Of a stretch of DNA of 64,000 bases, positions 1,651 through 60,329 are shown one piece after another. Numbering within the stretch: the stretch's first letter is position 1; each line of letters begins with the position of its first letter. The notes beneath the pieces are model-generated. The model was not told the origin of the DNA. It worked only from the letters and a program-made list of their open reading frames with translations, and did not search any database. The position numbers were made by a program, and so were the translations under genes. The stretch covers positions 32,001-96,000 of the IMG/VR virus record IMGVR_UViG_3300028920_000035; one strand, 5' to 3'. The stretch is from a virus.

Positions 1651-2532
1651 ATGCCCTACATCAAGTCACCCAATCCGGACTTTCAACGGAACGACGACAA
1701 CGACCCGCGGTACGCCCACCCCGCGGAGAGTCGTTCGACGCGCCCCATTCCTATGGCGTTCCAGATCACGAGCCCCGTCAATAGACGCAAGGTGCTCTTG
1801 CCCCACTCGCTCGTGCTGCATGTCAATCCGATGAGTCTAAATGAGACCCACACCCAGAAGATTGAACGGTTCCAGACCCGCGGGGGCTGGGTTGAGCAGC
1901 ACTGGGGTCACGACCTGACCGAAGTCAGCGCCGACGCCACGACAGGCGCTTTCATGAACGTCTACACGGGGACCGCCAGCGTGATGCGGCAACGCACCAT
2001 TGCGTGGGACCGGTTTCGCGACTTGCTCGACCTCTACCACAACAATGGTAGCCTCCGAGACCCGTTCGGTAACATCGTGCTGCAAGGCTACGTCCAGCTC
2101 ATGTTTGATCGAGGTACCCACCTGGGCTCGTTCCGGTCGTTTGAGGTCACGGAGACCGCCGACTCCCCTTTCGCATTCCAGCTTTCGTGGAGTTTCAAGA
2201 TCGAGCGCACCTTGCTCAAGGCCGTCCCCTCTATACGAGGCATTGCCGGGGACAACCCCTTCAGCCGTGTCCGACGGCCCAACCCCACCACGGTTGAAGC
2301 TCGGATCAGCGAAGAGCAGAAGCTTCTGGAGCAGTCTAAGAGTCCGTCCCTCATTACGCCTGAGGAAGCCCAAGCTCGTCTTGAACAACTGGAGGAGCAG
2401 AACGCTATTCTGGAGGATTCCGCTCGGCGACAGAATGAGCAACGAATCGCTGAAGAGAATGCTCAGCGTCGTTCCGACGCCGCGGAGTATGGGGTCGATG
2501 TCAACAAACTCTTCCCCTCAGGAGGTAGCTGA
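1651..2532 (+). CDS. Tail tube initiator / distal-tail-like baseplate protein
   Basis: Follows the tape measure. LVLHVNP..L..T.T.KI...QTRGGWVEQHWG and G.F.SF...E.A.SPF.F...F motifs resemble tube-fold initiator proteins. Confidence 0.6.
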   Translation: MPYIKSPNPDFQRNDDNDPRYAHPAESRSTRPIPMAFQITSPVNRRKVLLPHSLVLHVNPMSLNETHTQKIERFQTRGGWVEQHWGHDLTEVSADATTGAFMNVYTGTASVMRQRTIAWDRFRDLLDLYHNNGSLRDPFGNIVLQGYVQLMFDRGTHLGSFRSFEVTETADSPFAFQLSWSFKIERTLLKAVPSIRGIAGDNPFSRVRRPNPTTVEARISEEQKLLEQSKSPSLITPEEAQARLEQLEEQNAILEDSARRQNEQRIAEENAQRRSDAAEYGVDVNKLFPSGGS

Positions 2533-4538
2533 TGGCCCGACGACTGCTCCGAGACATCGAGGCAAACGCCCAGCACCTGACCAGCGGTGACATCGCTCAG
2601 CTGTTGACCTTCTACTCGGACCTGACCCTTGAAACGGACAGCCTCGGAGGTCAATACATCCCGCTCACGGCGGCCAAGACCTACACCCCCAAGCTGTTCG
2701 CGGTTGGTATCATCCCACCTCAGGTGGCCGTCACTGGACGTGCCCTGGACCGCTCGGCAAGTGTCGCTTCTCAGGGTGACCCTCTACCCGTGCTCCCCAA
2801 CTCGTCGGGCGGGCCCACCCTCAACATCGACGGTTCCATTGCGGACGCCACGGTTGATGGGGGTACGACGACTGGGACCCAGGAGTTCGACCCTACCAAG
2901 AATCGCATCAACACCAAAGCCTGGCAGTCGCACCCCGATTCGTTCTGGATCGATTTCGTCAGCATGGCCGAGCGCCAGGGGACAGACCCCATGGAACTGG
3001 CAGCCGTTCTCTGGAATGAGTCCAACTTCGATCCCGGCGCCTACAACGCCTCAGGGCGCGCGAAGGGACTCATCCAGCTTGTCCCGGTATCAGCCTTCTC
3101 CAAGCGGGTGGGGATGGACCGTGAAACCTGGGAGGGGTACCAGGACCTTTCAGCTGAGGACCAGCTCGTCTACGTCGAGAGGTATCTCAACGGGCAGATC
3201 AGAGGCAAGGACCGTGGGCAGATCTACCGGGTTATTTTCGGGGGCTTCAACAACCCCGACGGCTCACTGTATGCCAGCGCCGAGTACCAGAAGCAGTTCA
3301 GTGTCGAGTTTCCACGGGCTGAGTACCAAGCGACGGCCTACAAGATCAACGCTCCCTTGGACAAAGACAAGGACGGGACCATCACGGTCGCGGACCTTCG
3401 TGCCAAGGTAGAAAACCTTCCACCCTTTGGTGTCCGCGCGAAGATTGAACAGGCTGAGAACTCGGGTATTCGGTCCGGTCGCCGAACGGGCACTGAGGGT
3501 GACGCCGCGACGGAAGACACAAGCGTTTGGGCTACCGATGGGTCAGCCCTCAACGATGACCTGCGCCGACAGTTCGATGCCATCGCGGGGACGGGCTACA
3601 ACGCCACCGAGTTTGGGCAGAAGCTCCAGCTCGCTCAGAGGAAGCAGATCGAGGGCCTACAAGCCCAGATCGAAAAGATGAAGAAGCTACCTCCGTTGAA
3701 GATGCTGGTGAATCCCAACAGCTTTGCGGTGGCACACACGAAGGTCGTGGCCGACGCCAACTGGTCCCGCACCGGCCCCATCGTCGAGCACTGGGGTGAG
3801 GAGCAGGATGCCATCAGTGCGTCGGGGCAGCTCGCTGGCTTCTACGCGGTCGATGGTGTCAGCGGCAACGGGGGTCCAGGGCTCACCCGTATGGCTCGTC
3901 AGTTCAGTCAATCGTATCAGAACTTCATGGCGCTCTACCTCCTGTACCGGAGCAACGCTGGTGTCTACATGGAGGACCAGACGGGCGTCACGCCTTCCGA
4001 GAAGCGTGTCAACCTGGCCCTCCTGGGCAGCGTCTACATCTTCTACGACAACATCTTGTACATTGGGTCATTCGAGAACTTCAACATCACGGAAACTGAC
4101 GAGAAGCCTTTCACCTTGGAGTACAACTTCAGCTTCAGGGTTCGCGCATCGTTCCTGCTCGACGAGCCCACCGACCAGCGCTTCACCTATGGCGCTCCAG
4201 GACTCTTCGTCAACGAAGCGACACCAACGCTCCCGTCTCAACAACGGGTAGATGCCTTGGAGGGAGACCTCGAAGAGCTACAACGCCTACGCGAGGAGCA
4301 AATCGTCGCCAACAACGTTGAGCTGTTTGGGAGCGAAGAAGCCACCACTCGATACCTCGAATTGGAAATGAAGGATGCCATCACCAGCTCGCCCAAGACT
4401 CCTGGGAACGAGGCAGGTGCCGAGGCAGAACGCAAGGCTCGTGAGCAACGTCGTGCTCGCGCTCAGCAGAAGTTCATCAACGGGGAGTACTCGCTTGGAC
4501 AGCGAGACAGCATCTATGCCGCTAACCCACTGGATTGA
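2532..4538 (+). CDS. Virion lytic transglycosylase (SLT-like) fused to a second tube-initiator-like domain
   Basis: LAAVLWNESNFDPGA...AKGLIQL gives the catalytic E-S and GLxQ motifs. An EF-hand-like DKDKDGTITVAD follows. The C-half LKMLVNPNSF...VEHWGEE...GSFENFNITETDEKPF is paralogous to 1651..2532. TGATG coupling to the upstream gene. Confidence 0.75.
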   Translation: MARRLLRDIEANAQHLTSGDIAQLLTFYSDLTLETDSLGGQYIPLTAAKTYTPKLFAVGIIPPQVAVTGRALDRSASVASQGDPLPVLPNSSGGPTLNIDGSIADATVDGGTTTGTQEFDPTKNRINTKAWQSHPDSFWIDFVSMAERQGTDPMELAAVLWNESNFDPGAYNASGRAKGLIQLVPVSAFSKRVGMDRETWEGYQDLSAEDQLVYVERYLNGQIRGKDRGQIYRVIFGGFNNPDGSLYASAEYQKQFSVEFPRAEYQATAYKINAPLDKDKDGTITVADLRAKVENLPPFGVRAKIEQAENSGIRSGRRTGTEGDAATEDTSVWATDGSALNDDLRRQFDAIAGTGYNATEFGQKLQLAQRKQIEGLQAQIEKMKKLPPLKMLVNPNSFAVAHTKVVADANWSRTGPIVEHWGEEQDAISASGQLAGFYAVDGVSGNGGPGLTRMARQFSQSYQNFMALYLLYRSNAGVYMEDQTGVTPSEKRVNLALLGSVYIFYDNILYIGSFENFNITETDEKPFTLEYNFSFRVRASFLLDEPTDQRFTYGAPGLFVNEATPTLPSQQRVDALEGDLEELQRLREEQIVANNVELFGSEEATTRYLELEMKDAITSSPKTPGNEAGAEAERKAREQRRARAQQKFINGEYSLGQRDSIYAANPLD

Positions 4539-54472: not shown

Positions 54473-54685
54473 ATGACCAAGAGACACGCCACCCGCAAGC
54501 CCTCCCCTCTGATGCTCATGCGTAGGCAGGCCAGAGCGACTCGCCAGGCGCTCCAGGAAGCGGCCCTAGTAGTGAGTACCCTCCCGTCAGAGCCGCCGTC
54601 AGAGCCGCCGTCAGAGCCGAAGAAAGGCAACCACCACCAAGTCATCGTCACTGAGACGCTGGCCTCAAATGAATCTGCGGGATAG
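54473..54685 (+). CDS. Small basic hypothetical protein
   Basis: Fills the gap between fibre and holin-like genes. Contains (PSEP)x3. Confidence 0.4.
   Translation: MTKRHATRKPSPLMLMRRQARATRQALQEAALVVSTLPSEPPSEPPSEPKKGNHHQVIVTETLASNESAG
54584..54619 (+). repeat. Perfect 12-bp tandem repeat x3 (CCGTCAGAGCCG)
   Basis: Read directly from the sequence. Confidence 0.95.
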
Positions 54686-54716: not shown

Positions 54717-55124
54717 ATGGACCCCATTCAAGCACTTTGGAACCCAGGCACCCTCATCGTCGCGATGGTGGCCGTTATCGGCACGTTTTTCATTCGGCAG
54801 ATCGTCGAAACCATCGTGCCAGACCTCAAGAAAACCAGTGACGAGAACGACCTGACTCAAGCCACCTACAAGACCCAGTTCGCACGGTGGTGGAACAAGG
54901 TCATCCTTCATGCACTGCCCGTCTTCATCGGCGGCCTGTGTGGGTTGGGGCACAGCGTCTGGCTCTTCCCTGGGGTCGACACTACCGGCGCCCGCGTGAT
55001 GGTCGGCATCGTCCTTGGCTGGTTCAGCACTTTCCTTTACAAGATCATCCGCAAGGTCGTCAAACAGAAGACCGGTGTCGAGATCCATGAAGGTCCTCCA
55101 CCCGTGGGCACACCCCAGGATTGA
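54717..55124 (+). CDS. Putative holin (3 TM helices, basic C-tail)
   Basis: Three hydrophobic segments followed by KIIRKVVKQK. SD AAGGA. Lies at the end of the virion operon. Confidence 0.55.
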   Translation: MDPIQALWNPGTLIVAMVAVIGTFFIRQIVETIVPDLKKTSDENDLTQATYKTQFARWWNKVILHALPVFIGGLCGLGHSVWLFPGVDTTGARVMVGIVLGWFSTFLYKIIRKVVKQKTGVEIHEGPPPVGTPQD

Positions 55125-55133
55125 GAGGTCCCC

Positions 55134-55664
55134 GTGGCGTTCTGGAAGTCTTTTGGCCAGACGCTCAAGAAGGGATGGGACTGGTTCTCGGTTTGGATTC
55201 TGGGCCCCGGTGCGGCCCTGTTCGTAGTCCTGGGAGCCCTCGTTCTACTCTTCTTCGGCGCCAAAAACGTTCAGGTTGGTGGGATCCTCGACAAGCTGTT
55301 CAATCGCGACCGCAAGGACGGGGGCGGAGGCAAGGCCGTAGACGTTGCCAACACCGTCCCCAAGGGTCGTGTCGACAAGGACGGCAAGATCATCAAGCCA
55401 GGCGAACCCGACAGCAAGGGCACGACCCAGGCGGTGGTGGTCCCCATCAAAAAACCCGGGCTGTTCAAGCGGCCCGACAAGGTAGAGATTGTGCCACCGG
55501 GCAAGAAAGAGCCCGTCGAGATTGATCTCCCCGACGGTGTGAAGGCAAAGGACGTGGATGCCGTTATCATCGTCAAGCCCAACGTGAAAGTCGTCGCCGT
55601 CAAGCAGCACAGCCAGGTCAAGGGCAAAGACCTTGACGACTTGCTCGACAGGTACGGAGGATGA
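55134..55664 (+). CDS. N-terminally membrane-anchored protein (i-spanin-like topology)
   Basis: GTG start with SD GAGG. One TM segment (GAALFVVLGALVLLFFG), then a K/D/P/V-rich soluble domain. Confidence 0.6.
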   Translation: MAFWKSFGQTLKKGWDWFSVWILGPGAALFVVLGALVLLFFGAKNVQVGGILDKLFNRDRKDGGGGKAVDVANTVPKGRVDKDGKIIKPGEPDSKGTTQAVVVPIKKPGLFKRPDKVEIVPPGKKEPVEIDLPDGVKAKDVDAVIIVKPNVKVVAVKQHSQVKGKDLDDLLDRYGG

Positions 55665-55671
55665 GGTAGCG

Positions 55672-56274
55672 ATGATTCCCTTCATCATCTTTGGAGCTGA
55701 CACCGTCACCACGACGGCCGCGCCCGTGCAGGAATGCCAGGGGACCTGCGTCCCTGATGAAGACCTCCAGACGCTGCTGGCGGCGGCTCGCGAGCTACGG
55801 TGCTACAAGCCGGACAGCGACCACTACCAGGCGCCCACGCTTGAAGCTGACCCCATCACCATCATCGTGGACGAAGACAACCGTGTCTTCTTCAGCGGCG
55901 CCGAGCCCCATCCCTACAAGCTCCACCTCAAGTGGTGCGAGACCGAGGTGGAGTTCGAGGGTAAGCTCAACGTCGTTGCTGCCGTCCAGGAGGACCCCTG
56001 GTGGGGGTTCCGCTTCCGACCCAAGGCGTACCTTGGGTACCTGCCCCTCGTCGCTCTGGAGAGCAAGGAGGGGCTCGACGGGATGGATGCGGGGCTGCTC
56101 CTCGATTTCTTCTATGTCAGCTGGTTCAACGTCAATGCCGCGGTCGGATTCCGCAGTGTGGGCGCGGGATTTGGCATCGATATCACGAAGAACTTCGGGG
56201 GCTACGTCGGCTATGGGCTGAGCTATCAAGAGCCCTACCACGGGGTCAATGGTGCTCTTTGGTTCGCGTTCTGA
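55672..56274 (+). CDS. Cys-containing protein with C-terminal outer-membrane beta-strand region
   Basis: SD GAGGT before ATG 55672. Four Cys in the N-half. C-terminal ~90 aa of alternating Gly/aromatic strands ends VNGALWFAF. Confidence 0.6.
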   Translation: MIPFIIFGADTVTTTAAPVQECQGTCVPDEDLQTLLAAARELRCYKPDSDHYQAPTLEADPITIIVDEDNRVFFSGAEPHPYKLHLKWCETEVEFEGKLNVVAAVQEDPWWGFRFRPKAYLGYLPLVALESKEGLDGMDAGLLLDFFYVSWFNVNAAVGFRSVGAGFGIDITKNFGGYVGYGLSYQEPYHGVNGALWFAF

Positions 56275-56284
56275 TTCCTCTTGT
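56272..56284 (+). promoter_or_regulatory. Putative phage late-promoter motif (TGATTCCTCTTGT)
   Basis: 15 nt before ATG 56300. Confidence 0.45.
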
Positions 56285-56299
56285 GGGTCGGGTCTGGTG

Positions 56300-56875
56300 A
56301 TGGCCTATCGCTATGACCGTCGGACGGCGGCCGGGCCCATTCCCCTTGACAAGGGTGATATCAAGGAGCTGGCGGACCGCATCCTGAAGAAGCTGCCTCT
56401 ATACCTCAAGTTCCGTGACGACTACATGGACACTCCCATGCAGAGGGCGCGGGGGTACAATCCCAACCGTTGGCAGTACGAGGTTGAGGAAGGTTTCTCG
56501 ACGACCAACGTGCGCAACCACCCGATTCAGGTCGAGGTACATGTTGGCTTCAAAAAGCCTGAAGTTGCGTGGGGTGGGCGTGACTATGTCACCGGGGGAG
56601 CGGTTTCGTCACGATGGTATGGGGCGGATCGACGCGGCCGGGGGCGCGGCTTTGGTCTGCACACCAAGCTGACCGTCAACTCCACGCAATTTGTCGAACA
56701 GGCGTTGAAAGCATCAGCAACCTGGAAGCGCATTCAAGGCGCATTGAATCCCCACAACGAGCGCAAGATTCGAGAAGCCGTGTCACGGGCCCTGGTGCGT
56801 GAATGGCCACGTCTACAAGAGCTGTACCCTCAGGACCCTGACGACGAGTGGGACGAGACGCTCAACCTACCCTAG
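56300..56875 (+). CDS. Hypothetical protein beginning MAYRYDRRTAA (191 aa)
   Basis: ATG 56300 avoids overlap with the upstream gene. No SD, but the shared upstream motif is present. Confidence 0.6.
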   Translation: MAYRYDRRTAAGPIPLDKGDIKELADRILKKLPLYLKFRDDYMDTPMQRARGYNPNRWQYEVEEGFSTTNVRNHPIQVEVHVGFKKPEVAWGGRDYVTGGAVSSRWYGADRRGRGRGFGLHTKLTVNSTQFVEQALKASATWKRIQGALNPHNERKIREAVSRALVREWPRLQELYPQDPDDEWDETLNLP

Positions 56876-57329
56876 CGACTAGCTGCCGTTGTTTGATTTC
56901 GCCGAGCAGCTCGCGAGTGGCACGCATCAAGGCCATCCCTGCGACCTCAGGGGCGGACTTCTTGACGACCTCTACTCGCTTGTCAAGCTGGGGGCGCCGG
57001 TCGAAGTCGAAGGGTACATAGGAAACCAGAACCTGGGCAGCGCGGGGTACTGAAAGGGCAATAGAAAAGGCGTCCAGGTGGTGACGTCCGGTAAAGAAGT
57101 AGTAGACCACACCACGGGACTCGCTCGCTCCCAGCTGGTAGCGCTCCCCGGTAGCCTTCGAGATCATGAACATAAAGCGCTCAAGCATAGCGTTGAGGCT
57201 CAGCTTGGCTTCGACGAACCCCTCGCCTGGGTCAAAGGCAACACGCGTACGAACCCAGTTGGGTACCTCCAGCGTCGGACGAAGTCGGTGAAGGTAGTAG
57301 CGGGCGGCGACTCTCTTTGCGATGCTCAT
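56862..57329 (-). CDS. Hypothetical protein beginning MSIAKRVAARY (155 aa)
   Basis: The only credible minus-strand gene. ATG 57329 avoids overlap with the helicase, and the shared upstream motif is present. Confidence 0.6.
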   Translation of the reverse strand: MSIAKRVAARYYLHRLRPTLEVPNWVRTRVAFDPGEGFVEAKLSLNAMLERFMFMISKATGERYQLGASESRGVVYYFFTGRHHLDAFSIALSVPRAAQVLVSYVPFDFDRRPQLDKRVEVVKKSAPEVAGMALMRATRELLGEIKQRQLVARVG

Positions 57330-57345
57330 CACCGTAGCGAGCGGA

Positions 57346-57358
57346 ACAAAAGATTGTG
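57346..57358 (-). promoter_or_regulatory. Putative phage late-promoter motif (CACAATCTTTTGT on minus strand)
   Basis: 16 nt before the minus-strand ATG 57329. Its orientation flips with the gene. Confidence 0.4.
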
Positions 57359-57440
57359 GTGTCGTTGAGGGTACACCACTACCGGTTGTGAGTGGCTGAA
57401 AAGACGTGGTTCTGCTTAAGGGCCGGTGTAGCCTGAGGAA

Positions 57441-60329
57441 ATGCCAGATCCGATCAAGCTGTCGACCAAGCAGCGGGAGAAGTACGATCATCTTCTGAAG
57501 GTTCGAGCCAGCAAGACCTGCACGCTCAAGGGTACGCCACGGATGGCGAAGGAGATCACGGGTCTCGATGGGCAGCGAGTCCCTTTCAAGTTGCGGTACT
57601 ACCAGGTCCAGGGTGCATACCATTTGCTGGCGATGCGGCGCATGGTCTTGGGGGATGCGACGGGTCTAGGTAAGACCGTTGAGGCACTGGTGGCCATGGC
57701 GCACATCTGGGGCATTGAGCCATCGACGCGCTTCGTGATCGTCGCTCCCAAGAGTGCCCTGTACCAGTGGGCTAGCGAGATCGAACGCTTTCTCGTGGGC
57801 GTTGAGCCCATCGTGGTCGAAACCCCTAAAGCGGCCAAGGGACGGGCTCGCATCCAAGCTCGCGGAGATGCCTACCGTCGTTGGCTCGAAGCCATGAACG
57901 AGCGTCGGCATGCCGTGCTGATCATGAACTACGCAACCCTGATCCGGGACTGGAATCACGGCGCGTTTCAACCCGCGTTGCCCAACGGCAAACCCGACCC
58001 TAAGGCGCCCGTCAAGCCAGGACTCCTCGACCGAGTGATGGCGGCTGCGACCCGACGTAACCTAGGTGTCTTCTTTGACGAATGTTTCGACTACCACACA
58101 CCAATCACCTTGGCGGATGGGTCCACTGAATTGATCGGCAAGATTGTCTGCACCAAGACTCCGGTTGAGGTGCAATCGTGGAATTTTGAGAAGGGTTGTG
58201 CAGAGACGAGAAGGGTCGTGTCCTGGTTTCGCAACCCGTTGCGTGACCATCACCTGTTGAAGATATCGTTTCGATATGCCAACTCTTGCCGGGTCACCAA
58301 GAGCCATAAATTCTACAAGACCAACGGCAAGTCTGTTCGTGCCGGCAGCCTGAGGCCCGGCGCTGAGACGGCTTTCTTGAGTCTGAAGGTCCCCTCCTTT
58401 GACCAAGAGCAAGTTGTCTTGGGAAGCCTGCTTGGCGACGCTTGCATCCGCAACCCAGAAGGGGCTTGGGGGGTCACGTTTACCCAAGGTGAGGACCAGC
58501 TAGACTATCTGACTTTCAAGCGAGAGGTCCTGTTGTCGCTAGGAGTGTCTGAGTTCAACTCCGGGCCCAGTGGCTACAACCCTGCTAAAACCGTACACCA
58601 CTTCAGGTTGGGGGCGAACCCTTTCATCAACTCGCGGCACCACCTGCACAATGGGGCCCGTAAGACGGTCACAGTCGATTGGTTGGACGCCATTCAACCT
58701 CTCGGCTTGGCGGTCTGGTACGGAGACGACGGCTCTCTTGGAGAGTATCGCTCCAAGAAAGGTGCAATTCGGCGCCACATCATTCTCAACACACAAGGTT
58801 TCACCAAAGCCGAAAACGACCTTCTAGCAGGTTGGTTAAGGTGGCGGTGGGGTGTCAAAGCCAAGGTGCGCCTGTCGAGCAAAGGTTTCTACCTGTACCT
58901 TCCCCACGATGCAGCCGAACGCTTTTTGGGGTTGCTACCAGGGGCTTTGCCTGGGATCGAGTACAAATTTCCCGACAAGAAGCCTCTCCCGCTTCTCGAC
59001 AGAGAACCTCACACGGGATTAGTTCGAGATGAGGTTGTGGAGGTGGTACCCTGGTCACGGGCGCCCAAGAAGCGCGACTGCCAACAATATGTCTATGATA
59101 TCGAGGTGGAGGGTAACCATAACTACTTCGCGGCTGGAACGCTCGTCTCTAATTGCCAGGCATTCAAGAACATGCGCACGAAAACCTGGGAGATCTGTCG
59201 CTACTTGTCAGACAGATCAGACCGGGCCTATGGGCTTAGTGCGACCATCATCCAGAATCGCCTGGAGGAAGCGTTTGCCATTTTCAAGTGCCTTGTTCCC
59301 AAGCTATTCACCACGAAGACAGCATTCCTGGAGGACTACTGCCACACGCAGCTTCAGCCGGTCAAAGGAGGGCGCAAGGTACCGATCGTCGTAGGGTACA
59401 AGAACCTCAAGCACTTTCGGAATCGCATTGACCCCTTCTACTTGGGACGGCTCAAGCACGAGGTCAGTGATGAGCTACCGGTCCTGACGACACGTGAGGT
59501 CCGGGTCACTCTCAGCAAGGCCGAAGAGGTCAAATACAGGGAAGCCCTGACCGGTGTGCTGGAACTGGGCGATGGTGATGTGCGCGACTATGAAGAGCAC
59601 AAGGCATTGGTCGCCCTGACCTACTGCCAGCAAGTCGTCAACTCGCTCGCCCTGCTCAAGTTCGAGGAAGGAGATGAGGTAGGTCACGACCAATTCGACC
59701 TTGAAGCAGGAGACTACAAATCACACAAGGTCGGATCCCTCAGCAGCAAGGAACAGGCGTTGGTCGATCTGCTCACCGAAGAGTTGGATGGTCAGAACGT
59801 CATTATCTACACGCGGTTCGAGTCATGGGTCGGCCGCCTCCAGACCATTCTGAAAAGGCACAAGATCGAGGCGGTTCGCATCACGGGCAGGGAGACCAAT
59901 GCTAAATTGAGGCGAGAGGCCCAGGAAGCCTTCCAGGACCCTCAGAACCCGGTGCGAGTTGTGGTCATCACCGACGCCGGTAGCGAGTCTATTAACCTCC
60001 AGACGGCCATCGCCGAGGTCTTCCTCGATAGTCCCTACAATTGGGGCAAGTACGTGCAGATCATTGGTCGCATGATCCGCATTGGGTCCCCTCACCGCGG
60101 TGTGCTCGCCTACCATTTCATTGCCGAGCGGCCCCTCAAGAAGGACGCACGGACTATTGACGATCATGTGCTCAAGCTGTTGGCGAAGAAGAAGAACCTC
60201 GTTGACAAGGTGCTGGGAGAGGCAGCTGTGGGCGCCTTGGAGTTCGACTCTGACGACACCAACTCCATCCGGGCGCTTATCAACGCGATGGCCGGCAAAG
60301 AGGGAGACGCGAAGAAGGGGAAGAAGTGA
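57441..60329 (+). CDS. SNF2-family (SF2) helicase/translocase with intein
   Basis: LRYYQ, LGDATGLGKT (Walker A), VAPKS, spliced FFDE|CQAFKN (motif II), LSATIIQN, DAGSESINLQ and QIIGRMIRIG. Confidence 0.92.
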   Translation: MPDPIKLSTKQREKYDHLLKVRASKTCTLKGTPRMAKEITGLDGQRVPFKLRYYQVQGAYHLLAMRRMVLGDATGLGKTVEALVAMAHIWGIEPSTRFVIVAPKSALYQWASEIERFLVGVEPIVVETPKAAKGRARIQARGDAYRRWLEAMNERRHAVLIMNYATLIRDWNHGAFQPALPNGKPDPKAPVKPGLLDRVMAAATRRNLGVFFDECFDYHTPITLADGSTELIGKIVCTKTPVEVQSWNFEKGCAETRRVVSWFRNPLRDHHLLKISFRYANSCRVTKSHKFYKTNGKSVRAGSLRPGAETAFLSLKVPSFDQEQVVLGSLLGDACIRNPEGAWGVTFTQGEDQLDYLTFKREVLLSLGVSEFNSGPSGYNPAKTVHHFRLGANPFINSRHHLHNGARKTVTVDWLDAIQPLGLAVWYGDDGSLGEYRSKKGAIRRHIILNTQGFTKAENDLLAGWLRWRWGVKAKVRLSSKGFYLYLPHDAAERFLGLLPGALPGIEYKFPDKKPLPLLDREPHTGLVRDEVVEVVPWSRAPKKRDCQQYVYDIEVEGNHNYFAAGTLVSNCQAFKNMRTKTWEICRYLSDRSDRAYGLSATIIQNRLEEAFAIFKCLVPKLFTTKTAFLEDYCHTQLQPVKGGRKVPIVVGYKNLKHFRNRIDPFYLGRLKHEVSDELPVLTTREVRVTLSKAEEVKYREALTGVLELGDGDVRDYEEHKALVALTYCQQVVNSLALLKFEEGDEVGHDQFDLEAGDYKSHKVGSLSSKEQALVDLLTEELDGQNVIIYTRFESWVGRLQTILKRHKIEAVRITGRETNAKLRREAQEAFQDPQNPVRVVVITDAGSESINLQTAIAEVFLDSPYNWGKYVQIIGRMIRIGSPHRGVLAYHFIAERPLKKDARTIDDHVLKLLAKKKNLVDKVLGEAAVGALEFDSDDTNSIRALINAMAGKEGDAKKGKK
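58083..59153 (+). mobile_element. Intein with LAGLIDADG homing endonuclease (357 aa) in helicase motif II
   Basis: Starts CFDYHT. Block B is VTKSHKF. LGSLLGDA and AVWYGDDG motifs are present. Ends VYDIEVEGNHNYFA...LVSN before Cys+1. Confidence 0.92.

Follow-up and report, generated by a model that had tools for sequence, protein, structure and literature searches.

A conserved envelope-gene trio of uncultivated huge phages with a candidate six-stranded outer-membrane protein

A conserved gene trio behind the tail-fibre block

The stretch of viral DNA analysed here, called the window below, is 64,000 nucleotides (nt) long and corresponds to bases 32001-96000 of a 147.6-kb IMG/VR record (IMGVR_UViG_3300028920_000035, here G000). 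It carries a plus-strand block of very large virion-type genes, the last of which codes for a tail-fibre-like protein of 1342 amino acids (aa) with a weak PHROG tail-fibre match. At a distance of 268 nt behind this gene stand three small genes, p1, p2 and p3, which are the subject of this work:

54717..55124, plus strand: p1, 135 aa, holin-like inner-membrane protein with three hydrophobic segments and PHROG matches
55134..55664, plus strand: p2, 176 aa, predicted single-pass inner-membrane protein with one hydrophobic segment and 80 homologues
55672..56274, plus strand: p3, 200 aa, predicted exported protein with a minimal signal-like N-terminus, a Cys-containing N-domain and a six-stranded beta domain

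An earlier note, made from the letters of the window alone, had described three adjacent open reading frames (ORFs) at the end of the virion operon, coding for a protein with three transmembrane (TM) segments and a basic tail, a protein with a single TM segment, and a 200-aa protein with four Cys and no clear lipobox. All three ORFs were found as described, tightly packed, with intergenic gaps of 9 nt between p1 and p2 and of 7 nt between p2 and p3. On the 3' side follow the genes of an apparently intein-bearing SNF2 helicase and of a DnaB-like helicase. The order tail fibre, (p0), p1, p2, p3, SNF2 helicase, in which p0 denotes a small ORF not present everywhere, was met again in 40 contigs of IMG/VR at p3 identities down to ~30%, and some of these contigs are complete. 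The synteny of the trio in related phages, which the note had wished to see checked, is thereby confirmed. The packing and the recurring order of p1-p3 are far beyond chance. Within the 40 loci p2 is present in 39, and p1, as a relative or an equivalent, in about 30.

The genomes concerned are very large. CheckV rates G000 as 31% complete, and a full genome of ~450 kb is therefore expected. The contigs of relatives, located via p3, measure 66-529 kb; G001 (437 kb), G004 (512 kb) and G005 (448 kb) end in direct terminal repeats and have a completeness rating of 100%. A tblastn search of p1 and p3 against 50,697 GenBank phage records gave no match. p3 was not found in 185,579 prokaryote species genomes (one per species) either, which is a weak absence, since a single peptide pattern was used. 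The p3 family looks restricted to phages of this huge-phage lineage. Searches with p1, p2 and p3 themselves returned no Pfam family.

The exported protein p3 and its beta domain

The p3 gene starts with the ATG at 55672. Its Shine-Dalgarno sequence, GGAGGA, is located 8-13 nt ahead of this ATG and overlaps the final codons of p2. In a metagenome collection of 5.8 billion proteins, 153 p3 homologues were found at E <= 0.01, and the family comprises 111 cluster representatives at 50% identity. An alignment of 30 homologues (A1) was used for the AlphaFold2 (AF2) run. Three parts can be told apart in the protein:

55672..55698, plus strand: N-terminal hydrophobic stretch of nine residues without K/R, read as a degenerate signal peptide
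55747..55986, plus strand: N-domain, residues ~26-105, one helix and a small sheet, predicted to be periplasmic
56002..56271, plus strand: C-terminal beta domain, residues 111-200, six antiparallel amphipathic strands with a GxxFxF-type beta-signal end

The shortness of the N-terminus had been a concern about the export of p3. In a simple count over the 111 representatives, a hydrophobic region is present in 107 and K/R precedes it in 97 (~87%), and ten, including the window copy, have no K/R. Most members of A1 possess canonical Sec signal peptides with AxA-type sites followed by Q/E. The degenerate form is common to the window copy and its two closest relatives, and by these comparisons the short N-terminus is a peculiarity of a sub-branch, not a feature of the family. 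As far as can be read from the family's sequences, p3 is shown to be an exported protein of a phage-only family. In the N-domain C26, C44 and C89 are invariant, and the fourth Cys lies just before C26 in most sequences. The homologues of p3, like p3 itself, show no lipobox; one distant homologue, P0308, carries an LLAC-like motif. One of the 30 aligned members matches PF13505 (OMP_b-brl, E 0.0018), and the ESM Atlas neighbours of p3 are PagL, OMP_b-brl, CopB and PorP, with low scores. A profile search against PDB sequences gave no match at E up to 10.

The C-terminal domain is the best-modelled part of p3. The mean predicted local distance difference test score (pLDDT) of the AF2 model is 81.5, and it exceeds 90 in the C-terminal part (86-96 by blocks), where the strands that the earlier note had counted as roughly six are recovered at residues 111-123, 138-149, 152-159, 162-170, 175-184 and 190-199. 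The column statistics of A1 reveal a dyad pattern. One face is variable and yet hydrophobic (F/L/V/I/A), and its strands have aromatics at both ends. On the opposite face G112, R116, K118, G159, G164, G168, D170, G176 and G180 are invariant, and R114, D139, D145, N153, N155 and R161 nearly so. In soluble barrels a conserved hydrophobic core is combined with a variable polar surface. The variable hydrophobic face and the invariant Gly/charged face of p3 are the reverse of this and correspond to the pattern of a small outer-membrane barrel. Moreover, length varies only in the two loops that follow strands 1 and 5 on one side of the domain; the turns on the other side consist of 2-4 residues. The last strand reads small/Gly-x-x-F-x-F, with F198 and F200 invariant (30/30) and A, G or S at residue 195, and 85 of 120 homologues end in FxF (56) or FxFW (29). 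The C-terminal beta-signal of substrates of the beta-barrel assembly machinery (BAM) is small/Gly-x-x-hydrophobic-x-aromatic, usually with a terminal F, W or Y, and the predicted last strand of p3 fits it.

The structural neighbours of the p3 model were the following:

Designed soluble six-strand barrel BBn6 (9xzt): Z 9.3, root-mean-square deviation (rmsd) 2.3, 79 residues
Designed transmembrane barrel (6x9z): Z 6.3, rmsd 2.8, 81 residues
OmpW, KdgM, OmpU, OmpA, OprF, TamA, PagL, NspA, Tsx and CarO: Z 4-5

The paper on BBn6 states that such a fold rarely if ever occurs in nature. In BFVD the neighbours of p3 are phage proteins resembling outer-membrane proteins (OMPs) and an uncharacterised 324-aa phage protein (E 4e-4); a Foldseek search of the PDB returned nothing at E <= 0.001. 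We read the monomer model as closing its six strands into a minimal barrel, and the real state could be such a minimal barrel or an oligomeric one. With an even number of strands the N-domain and the C-terminus come to lie on the same side, presumably in the periplasm. An eight-strand barrel that makes use of hairpin 81-98 was considered and rejected: C89 of this hairpin is invariant together with C44 of the N-domain helix, and in the model the hairpin is packed against the N-domain.

The best structural match also speaks for another possibility, which cuts across every reading of the module's role, namely that the beta domain is a small barrel which stays soluble in the periplasm and binds, for instance, lipids or other ligands. 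Among the weak structural matches, LptF/G jellyroll domains and proteins resembling lipocalins point the same way, and the smallest known outer-membrane barrels have, to our knowledge, eight strands, no natural six-strand one being known to us. The distribution of conservation over the two faces is, however, opposite to what a soluble barrel would have, and the aromatics at both strand ends, the C-terminus resembling a beta-signal and the restriction of loop variation to one side do not suit it. We consider the soluble barrel rather unlikely and the insertion of p3 into the outer membrane, on the strength of the model and its conservation pattern, fairly probable. The earlier proposal of an outer-membrane component anchored by a small beta domain is thus upheld in the hallmarks of that domain and in p3 not being a lipoprotein.

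p3 is not the first phage protein of this kind. A preprint of 2026 on phage OMPs (bioRxiv 10.64898/2026.10.24.761521), whose catalogue holds 1,603 proteins, includes six-stranded OMPs of huge phages. This class is mostly related to the cyanophage family DUF680/IPR056410; its incomplete six-strand barrel is modelled as a 12-strand dimer, and some members are placed in 'conserved virion-assembly loci'. p3 resembles them in being phage-encoded, exported and six-stranded; it differs in its additional ~85-aa Cys-containing N-domain and in its obligate inner-membrane partner gene. No DUF680 Pfam match was obtained in 30 p3 members at E up to 5. Judged by these searches, p3 is not a detectable member of DUF680 but appears to be the same kind of object. 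The catalogue lowers the novelty of a six-strand phage OMP, and the coupling with p2 is untouched by it.

p3 can also be compared with lambda Lom and the Ail family, with which it shares the small size, the phage beta-protein character, the signal peptide and the C-terminal aromatic motif, and OmpW, OmpA, NspA and PagL are among its structural neighbours. It differs in having six strands instead of eight, in matching no sequence family, in being a core gene and not a moron, and in being coupled to p2. This likeness raises the question of superinfection exclusion or receptor masking, in which p3 in the outer membrane would bind or crowd host receptors like lambda Lom, with p2 as a helper. The loops of variable length, on the side presumed to face outwards, and the location of the trio away from any endolysin gene agree with such a role, and the same preprint, which presents phage OMPs as common in huge phages, proposes it (bioRxiv 10.64898/2026.10.24.761521). 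The p2-p3 pair, however, is core, is found at a fixed position among late virion genes and has been kept in a lineage diverged to ~30% identity, whereas exclusion genes are usually accessory and patchy. Furthermore, it is the presumed lumen face and the periplasmic N-domain of p3 that hold the invariant residues, not the surface loops, and the tight coupling with the highly conserved p2 would be left unexplained. Exclusion is therefore regarded as unlikely.

The partner p2 and the holin-like p1

The genes p2 and p3 are neighbours, overlap or are fused in all but one of the 40 loci. The stop codon of p2 and the start codon of p3 are directly adjacent in 18 of 37 loci, with a 4-nt overlap in 8 of these. 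In the remaining loci 0.2-1.7 kb lie between the two genes, mostly with the gene of a J-domain protein and once with that of a NUMOD3 endonuclease. An exhaustive profile search revealed p2 and p3 as a single ORF of 335-410 aa in P0216, P0243, P0258, P0261, P0265, P0274, P0277 and P0294, and a further fusion, P0246, is 5'-truncated; the count among divergent representatives is thus at least 8 full-length fusions and one truncated. In locus L053 the fused gene has kept the genomic position of the separate ones: it stands behind a fibre-like gene and the gene of a 123-aa membrane protein and is followed by SNF2, DnaB, primase and PolA genes. The fusions are the same module in a distant branch. 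All fusion junctions consist of an 11-16-residue hydrophobic stretch, a small-x-small (AxA) site, Q/E and the first Cys, and in most of them K/R of the conserved C-terminal motif of p2 stand ahead of the hydrophobic stretch. By its composition the junction is a complete internal signal peptide. Because p2 and p3 form one ORF in distant relatives, the comparison shows the two, as far as gene architecture can, to be functionally coupled. The junction signal peptide can export p3 only with the p2 domain in the cytoplasm, and a spanin-like bridging of the periplasm by p2 is therefore disfavoured. A complex prediction of p3 (20-200) with p2 (45-176), both given as alignments, scored 0.01, a value that counts neither for nor against binding. 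A p2-p3 frameshift fusion in the window was also considered and dropped, as the genes are in different frames, p2 ends with a clean TGA and p3 has a strong Shine-Dalgarno sequence of its own.

The J-domain protein (343-438 aa; PF00226, E 2.7e-5, just under the cut-off) is found inside or beside the module in 12 loci, where its gene separates p2 from p3 or p1 from p2, or stands just 3' of p3; the window trio is without it. Other genes inserted at the trio across the 40 loci code for a homing endonuclease and S-adenosylmethionine (AdoMet) decarboxylase. The J-domain gene positions are:

L001, 6901-8004: J-domain protein, PF00226
L003, 4809-5987: J-domain protein, PF00226
10 further loci: J-domain protein, PF00226

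p2 consists of a Trp-rich amphipathic N-helix, a TM segment at about residues 22-41 and a strongly conserved soluble domain of 130 aa. The 80 homologues were found in metagenomes, and the mean column identity of the p2 alignment (A2) is 54%. The protein has neither Cys nor a coiled coil in the alignment or the AF2 model. The pLDDT of this model is 63 and falls below 50 in the conserved stretch 69-98, which is modelled as disordered; the soluble part shows short strands and disorder and no long helices. In comparisons of the model with the PDB (Foldseek, VIA) only the N-terminal helices match, at Z <= 4.6, the beta part being too poorly modelled for a search. The ESM Atlas contained no usable match to p2, and Pfam searches with all members of the p2 alignment gave only scattered weak matches driven by the TM segment. 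The TM flanks carry on average 3.2 K/R on the N-side and 3.9 on the C-side (85 sequences), so that the positive-inside rule gives no orientation and the charge balance does not favour C-out. Some homologues possess Pro- and acid-rich N-terminal extensions of a kind compatible with translocation. Taken together with the fusion junctions, the sequences incline us to place the conserved domain in the cytoplasm (N-out/C-in).

This bears directly on the role of p2 as the spanin-like partner that it was first taken for. In a true spanin analogue, p2 would span the periplasm and bind the p3 N-domain, and the complex would fuse or tear the membranes after peptidoglycan breakdown. The likeness to the two-component spanins (lambda Rz/Rz1) and the unimolecular spanin (T1 gp11) lies in the combination of an inner-membrane and an outer-membrane-targeted protein, both phage-specific and encoded among late genes, and the adjacent, overlapping or, in relatives, fused genes mirror the separate, overlapping and fused architectures of spanins. 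The conserved stretch 69-98 of p2, disordered when modelled alone, also looks as if it folded on a partner. The differences are considerable, however. p3 has a signal of the signal-peptidase-I type and a beta domain in place of a lipobox. The pair is not beside an endolysin gene. p2 has no coiled coil, as the earlier note had itself cautioned, has no Cys, shows a charge balance not favouring C-out and is far more conserved than is usual for spanins. The full signal peptide between the p2 and p3 parts of the fusions would leave p2 cytoplasmic, and whereas a unimolecular spanin crosses the periplasm as one chain, the fusion's internal signal peptide implies cleavage into two proteins. The identification of p2 as a spanin-like protein is thus not sustained, and we hold a true spanin analogue to be improbable.

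p1 is predicted to have an N-out/C-in topology, and its third hydrophobic segment is followed by a basic K/R-rich juxtamembrane stretch and a Pro-rich tail. In an alignment of 23 p1 relatives (A3) the three hydrophobic segments are kept, R27 (after the first segment) and G101 are invariant, and the Pro-rich tail is variable. The PHROG family phrog_1299, named 'holin', is matched by 9 of the 23 (best E 3.3e-5), phrog_1129 'holin' by 3 and phrog_3427 'holin' by 1, and the sole non-holin PHROG is one unnamed family in a single member; PHROG names are annotations, not functional tests. The window p1 itself has a weak holin PHROG match (E 0.018-0.027), and Pfam searches with all members of A3 gave scattered weak TM-driven matches and no consistent holin family. 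Small size, one or more TM segments and a hydrophilic C-terminus with charged residues, all of them expected of a holin, are present. In its three TM segments, its predicted topology and its charged C-tail p1 is comparable with class I holins such as lambda S105; it departs from them in its long cytoplasmic loop (~30 aa), in having no adjacent endolysin gene and no Pfam holin family, and in its absence from the distant branch. In T4 the holin gene t comes directly behind gene 38, a tail-fibre gene, and the endolysin and the spanins are encoded elsewhere. p1 is likewise directly 3' of a tail-fibre gene, and T4 therefore provides a precedent for a holin gene ending a fibre operon. By sequence p1 resembles holins, and a holin function may be suggested on this basis; the earlier description as holin-like is carried by the PHROG matches of its relatives, less so by the window copy, and finds no backing in Pfam.

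Lysis genes elsewhere and the role of the module

The lysis functions of these genomes were searched for in G000 and in five relatives, four of them rated complete and one 94%. The main locus in G000 and the wall-cutting gene of the window are:

G000 142080-144680, outside the window, ~54 kb downstream of p3: lysis-like locus, syntenic with the G001 endolysin locus
Window 2532-4538: SLT gene, 668 aa, in the virion block

In the G000 locus the minus strand carries a CHAP-like gene (PF05257, E 2.7e-5; its score of 25 bits is just below the cut-off of 26). A 143-aa protein of this locus combines a TM segment at the N-terminus with a coiled coil and matches three 'Rz-like spanin' PHROGs at E ~5e-4; the locus further contains a coiled-coil ORF of 77 aa and the gene of a TM/coiled-coil protein of 213 aa. 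G000 and G001 are collinear, and the syntenic place in G001 is occupied by a PG_binding_1 + Peptidase_M15_4 endolysin. An enzyme apparently swapped at a fixed locus with conserved membrane-protein flanks is the usual signature of a lysis cassette. PG_binding_1 + Peptidase_M15_4 was found in G001 and G005 and GH25 in G003, each 50-80 kb from the trio; PF00959 was absent from the five relatives, and PF01510 from G000 and the four complete ones. SLT (PF01464) occurs in G000 and 3 of the 5 relatives, only inside a gene of 630-668 aa, which lies in the virion block in G000 and G001. The 668-aa gene is the only SLT gene in the record (30 bits), with 631-660-aa counterparts, and it probably codes for a virion-borne wall-cutting entry enzyme and not for an endolysin.

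It had also been asked whether canonical spanins exist elsewhere in the genome. The Rz-like TM/coiled-coil protein ~54 kb downstream answers to one half of a spanin; its lipoprotein partner did not appear. Lipobox scans around the G000 and G001 endolysin loci gave no credible lipoprotein o-spanin, and a heuristic census of the whole G001 genome listed lipoproteins, none of them paired with a TM protein, and no adjacent TM-plus-lipoprotein spanin pair. This is a point for the spanin analogue described above and equally for the explanation preferred below. A related possibility, to which we give little credence, is that p3 as a six-strand outer-membrane protein replaces the lipoprotein o-spanin, its partner being p2 or the orphan Rz-like protein at the distant locus. 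G001 also encodes two tandem paralogous lipoproteins of ~100 aa (242789-243617) and a 121-aa Pro-/Cys-rich lipoprotein (265050-265415); by their sequences these small lipoproteins do not look like o-spanins, and none adjoins a TM protein.

Another envelope-related gene lies outside the window, at G000 108367-110265 (minus strand), and codes for a membrane-anchored 632-aa GT51-type protein with EDxxFxxHxG-like and GGSTIT-like motifs, identified by eye. Its 34%-identical counterpart at G001 70970-72676 indicates conservation in the lineage. Such a protein would suit a module devoted to maintenance or remodelling of the envelope during a long infection, or to a membrane-anchored assembly step, and not to lysis. 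The J-domain protein within the module agrees with a p2 domain that lies in the cytoplasm and either depends on chaperones or recruits them, and the six-stranded OMPs of 'conserved virion-assembly loci' (bioRxiv 10.64898/2026.10.24.761521) agree with an assembly step. However, no component belongs to a recognisable enzymatic or structural family, p1 has its holin-type matches and nothing links p2 to virion proteins. This explanation is doubtful, although it keeps an appreciable part of the probability.

The best explanation of the locus is that p1-p3 form a core envelope module of an uncultivated lytic huge-phage lineage (~400-530 kb). The trio would be transcribed, presumably late, as the last genes of the virion (tail-fibre) block. 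p3 would be exported by Sec and inserted by BAM into the host outer membrane as a very small or oligomeric barrel, and its disulfide-bonded N-domain would stay in the periplasm. p2 would reside in the inner membrane and most likely extend its conserved domain into the cytoplasm, and in the fused forms signal peptidase would separate it from p3. p1 would be a holin, placed after the tail-fibre genes like T4 gene t, and p2/p3 an outer-membrane-directed accessory that weakens or permeabilises this membrane for release, not by a spanin-like bridging of both membranes. That the module acts in late envelope disruption is put forward tentatively, as the chances are somewhat short of even; within such a role, an outer-membrane-directed action of p3 is preferred to spanin-like bridging.

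Several observations weigh against this interpretation. The nine most distant loci (L033-L041) retain p2-p3 without p1, and none of the genes that lie between fibre and helicase in the 40 loci belongs to an endolysin family, an absence that the earlier note had already remarked beside the trio. Because of the separate lysis-like locus, p1-p3 may not be needed for lysis. The conservation of p2 is on a par with that of replication enzymes, which is unusual for lysis proteins. As regards p3, the window copy has a very short signal peptide without positive charge, the single chain with its six strands falls short of a closed barrel of at least eight, the monomer model comes closest to a soluble designed barrel, and in the distant branch p3 does not end in F, since one extra residue (N, H or Y) follows the hydrophobic dyad. 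The lysis cassette proposed in the earlier note is accordingly retained in part: p2 and p3 are tied together and p1 has holin matches, but there is no adjoining endolysin gene and a lysis-like locus exists elsewhere.

The surroundings of the trio vary between relatives. A small soluble ORF precedes p1 in the window, and proteins of another type adjoin the p2-p3 pair in the distant branch without p1:

54473..54685, plus strand: p0, 70 aa, small soluble ORF between the fibre gene and p1, member of a 21-ORF cluster with a shared C-terminal motif
L034, 4454-5452: Cys-/Gly/Ser-rich protein with a lipobox-like N-terminus, adjoining p2-p3
L038, 4312-5172: the same type, adjoining p2-p3
L040, 6603-7172: the same type, adjoining p2-p3

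The C-terminal tail of p0 resembles a helical family of 59-116 aa found at the same position in 21 loci (motif judged by eye), and the window copy appears shortened, the N-terminal part or middle of the family sequence seeming to be missing. The ATG of p0 is preceded, at a distance of 13-20 nt, by the motif CACTATCC. The region from the fibre gene to p3 contains 4 terminator-like sites against 5.7 expected by chance, and none stands out; together with the tight gene spacing this agrees with the assumed timing of the module. The Cys- and Gly/Ser-rich proteins might be a third envelope component in the distant branch. In a 421-kb relative a 185-aa predicted lipoprotein with an HExxH zinc-peptidase motif and a weak Peptidase_M10 match is encoded between the fibre gene and p1 (L001 5062-5619, minus strand). 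On the 3' side of p3 the window has two ORFs, 56249-56875 (208 aa) and 56862-57623 (253 aa, minus strand), without a counterpart at this place in the 40 loci; a 43%-identical relative of the 208-aa protein lies elsewhere in G001 (288267-289067). The SNF2-family helicase (window 57441-60329) has 962 aa, compared with 583-596 aa in many relatives. Its extra ~370 aa, with Cys at the start and HN then Cys at the end, are intein-like with a homing-endonuclease part, and enlarged versions (1030-1398 aa) also occur in some relatives.

Summarizing, p2-p3 is a core pair of no known family whose position is fixed across a lineage of 400-530-kb phages, and in it an inner-membrane protein is combined with an exported protein whose beta domain, of outer-membrane type, has only six strands. 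According to a preprint, a spanin cannot be recognised in ~15% of the phages that infect Gram-negative hosts (bioRxiv 10.1101/515445). The natural p2-p3 fusions with their internal signal peptide represent a ready-made experiment on topology and processing. If p3 does reside in the outer membrane, it would be the smallest natural barrel or a new oligomeric architecture, and a compact BAM substrate useful for studies of outer-membrane protein assembly. If the module is a lysis factor, the three kinds of outer-membrane disruptor, namely spanins, disruptin and LysB, would be joined by a fourth.

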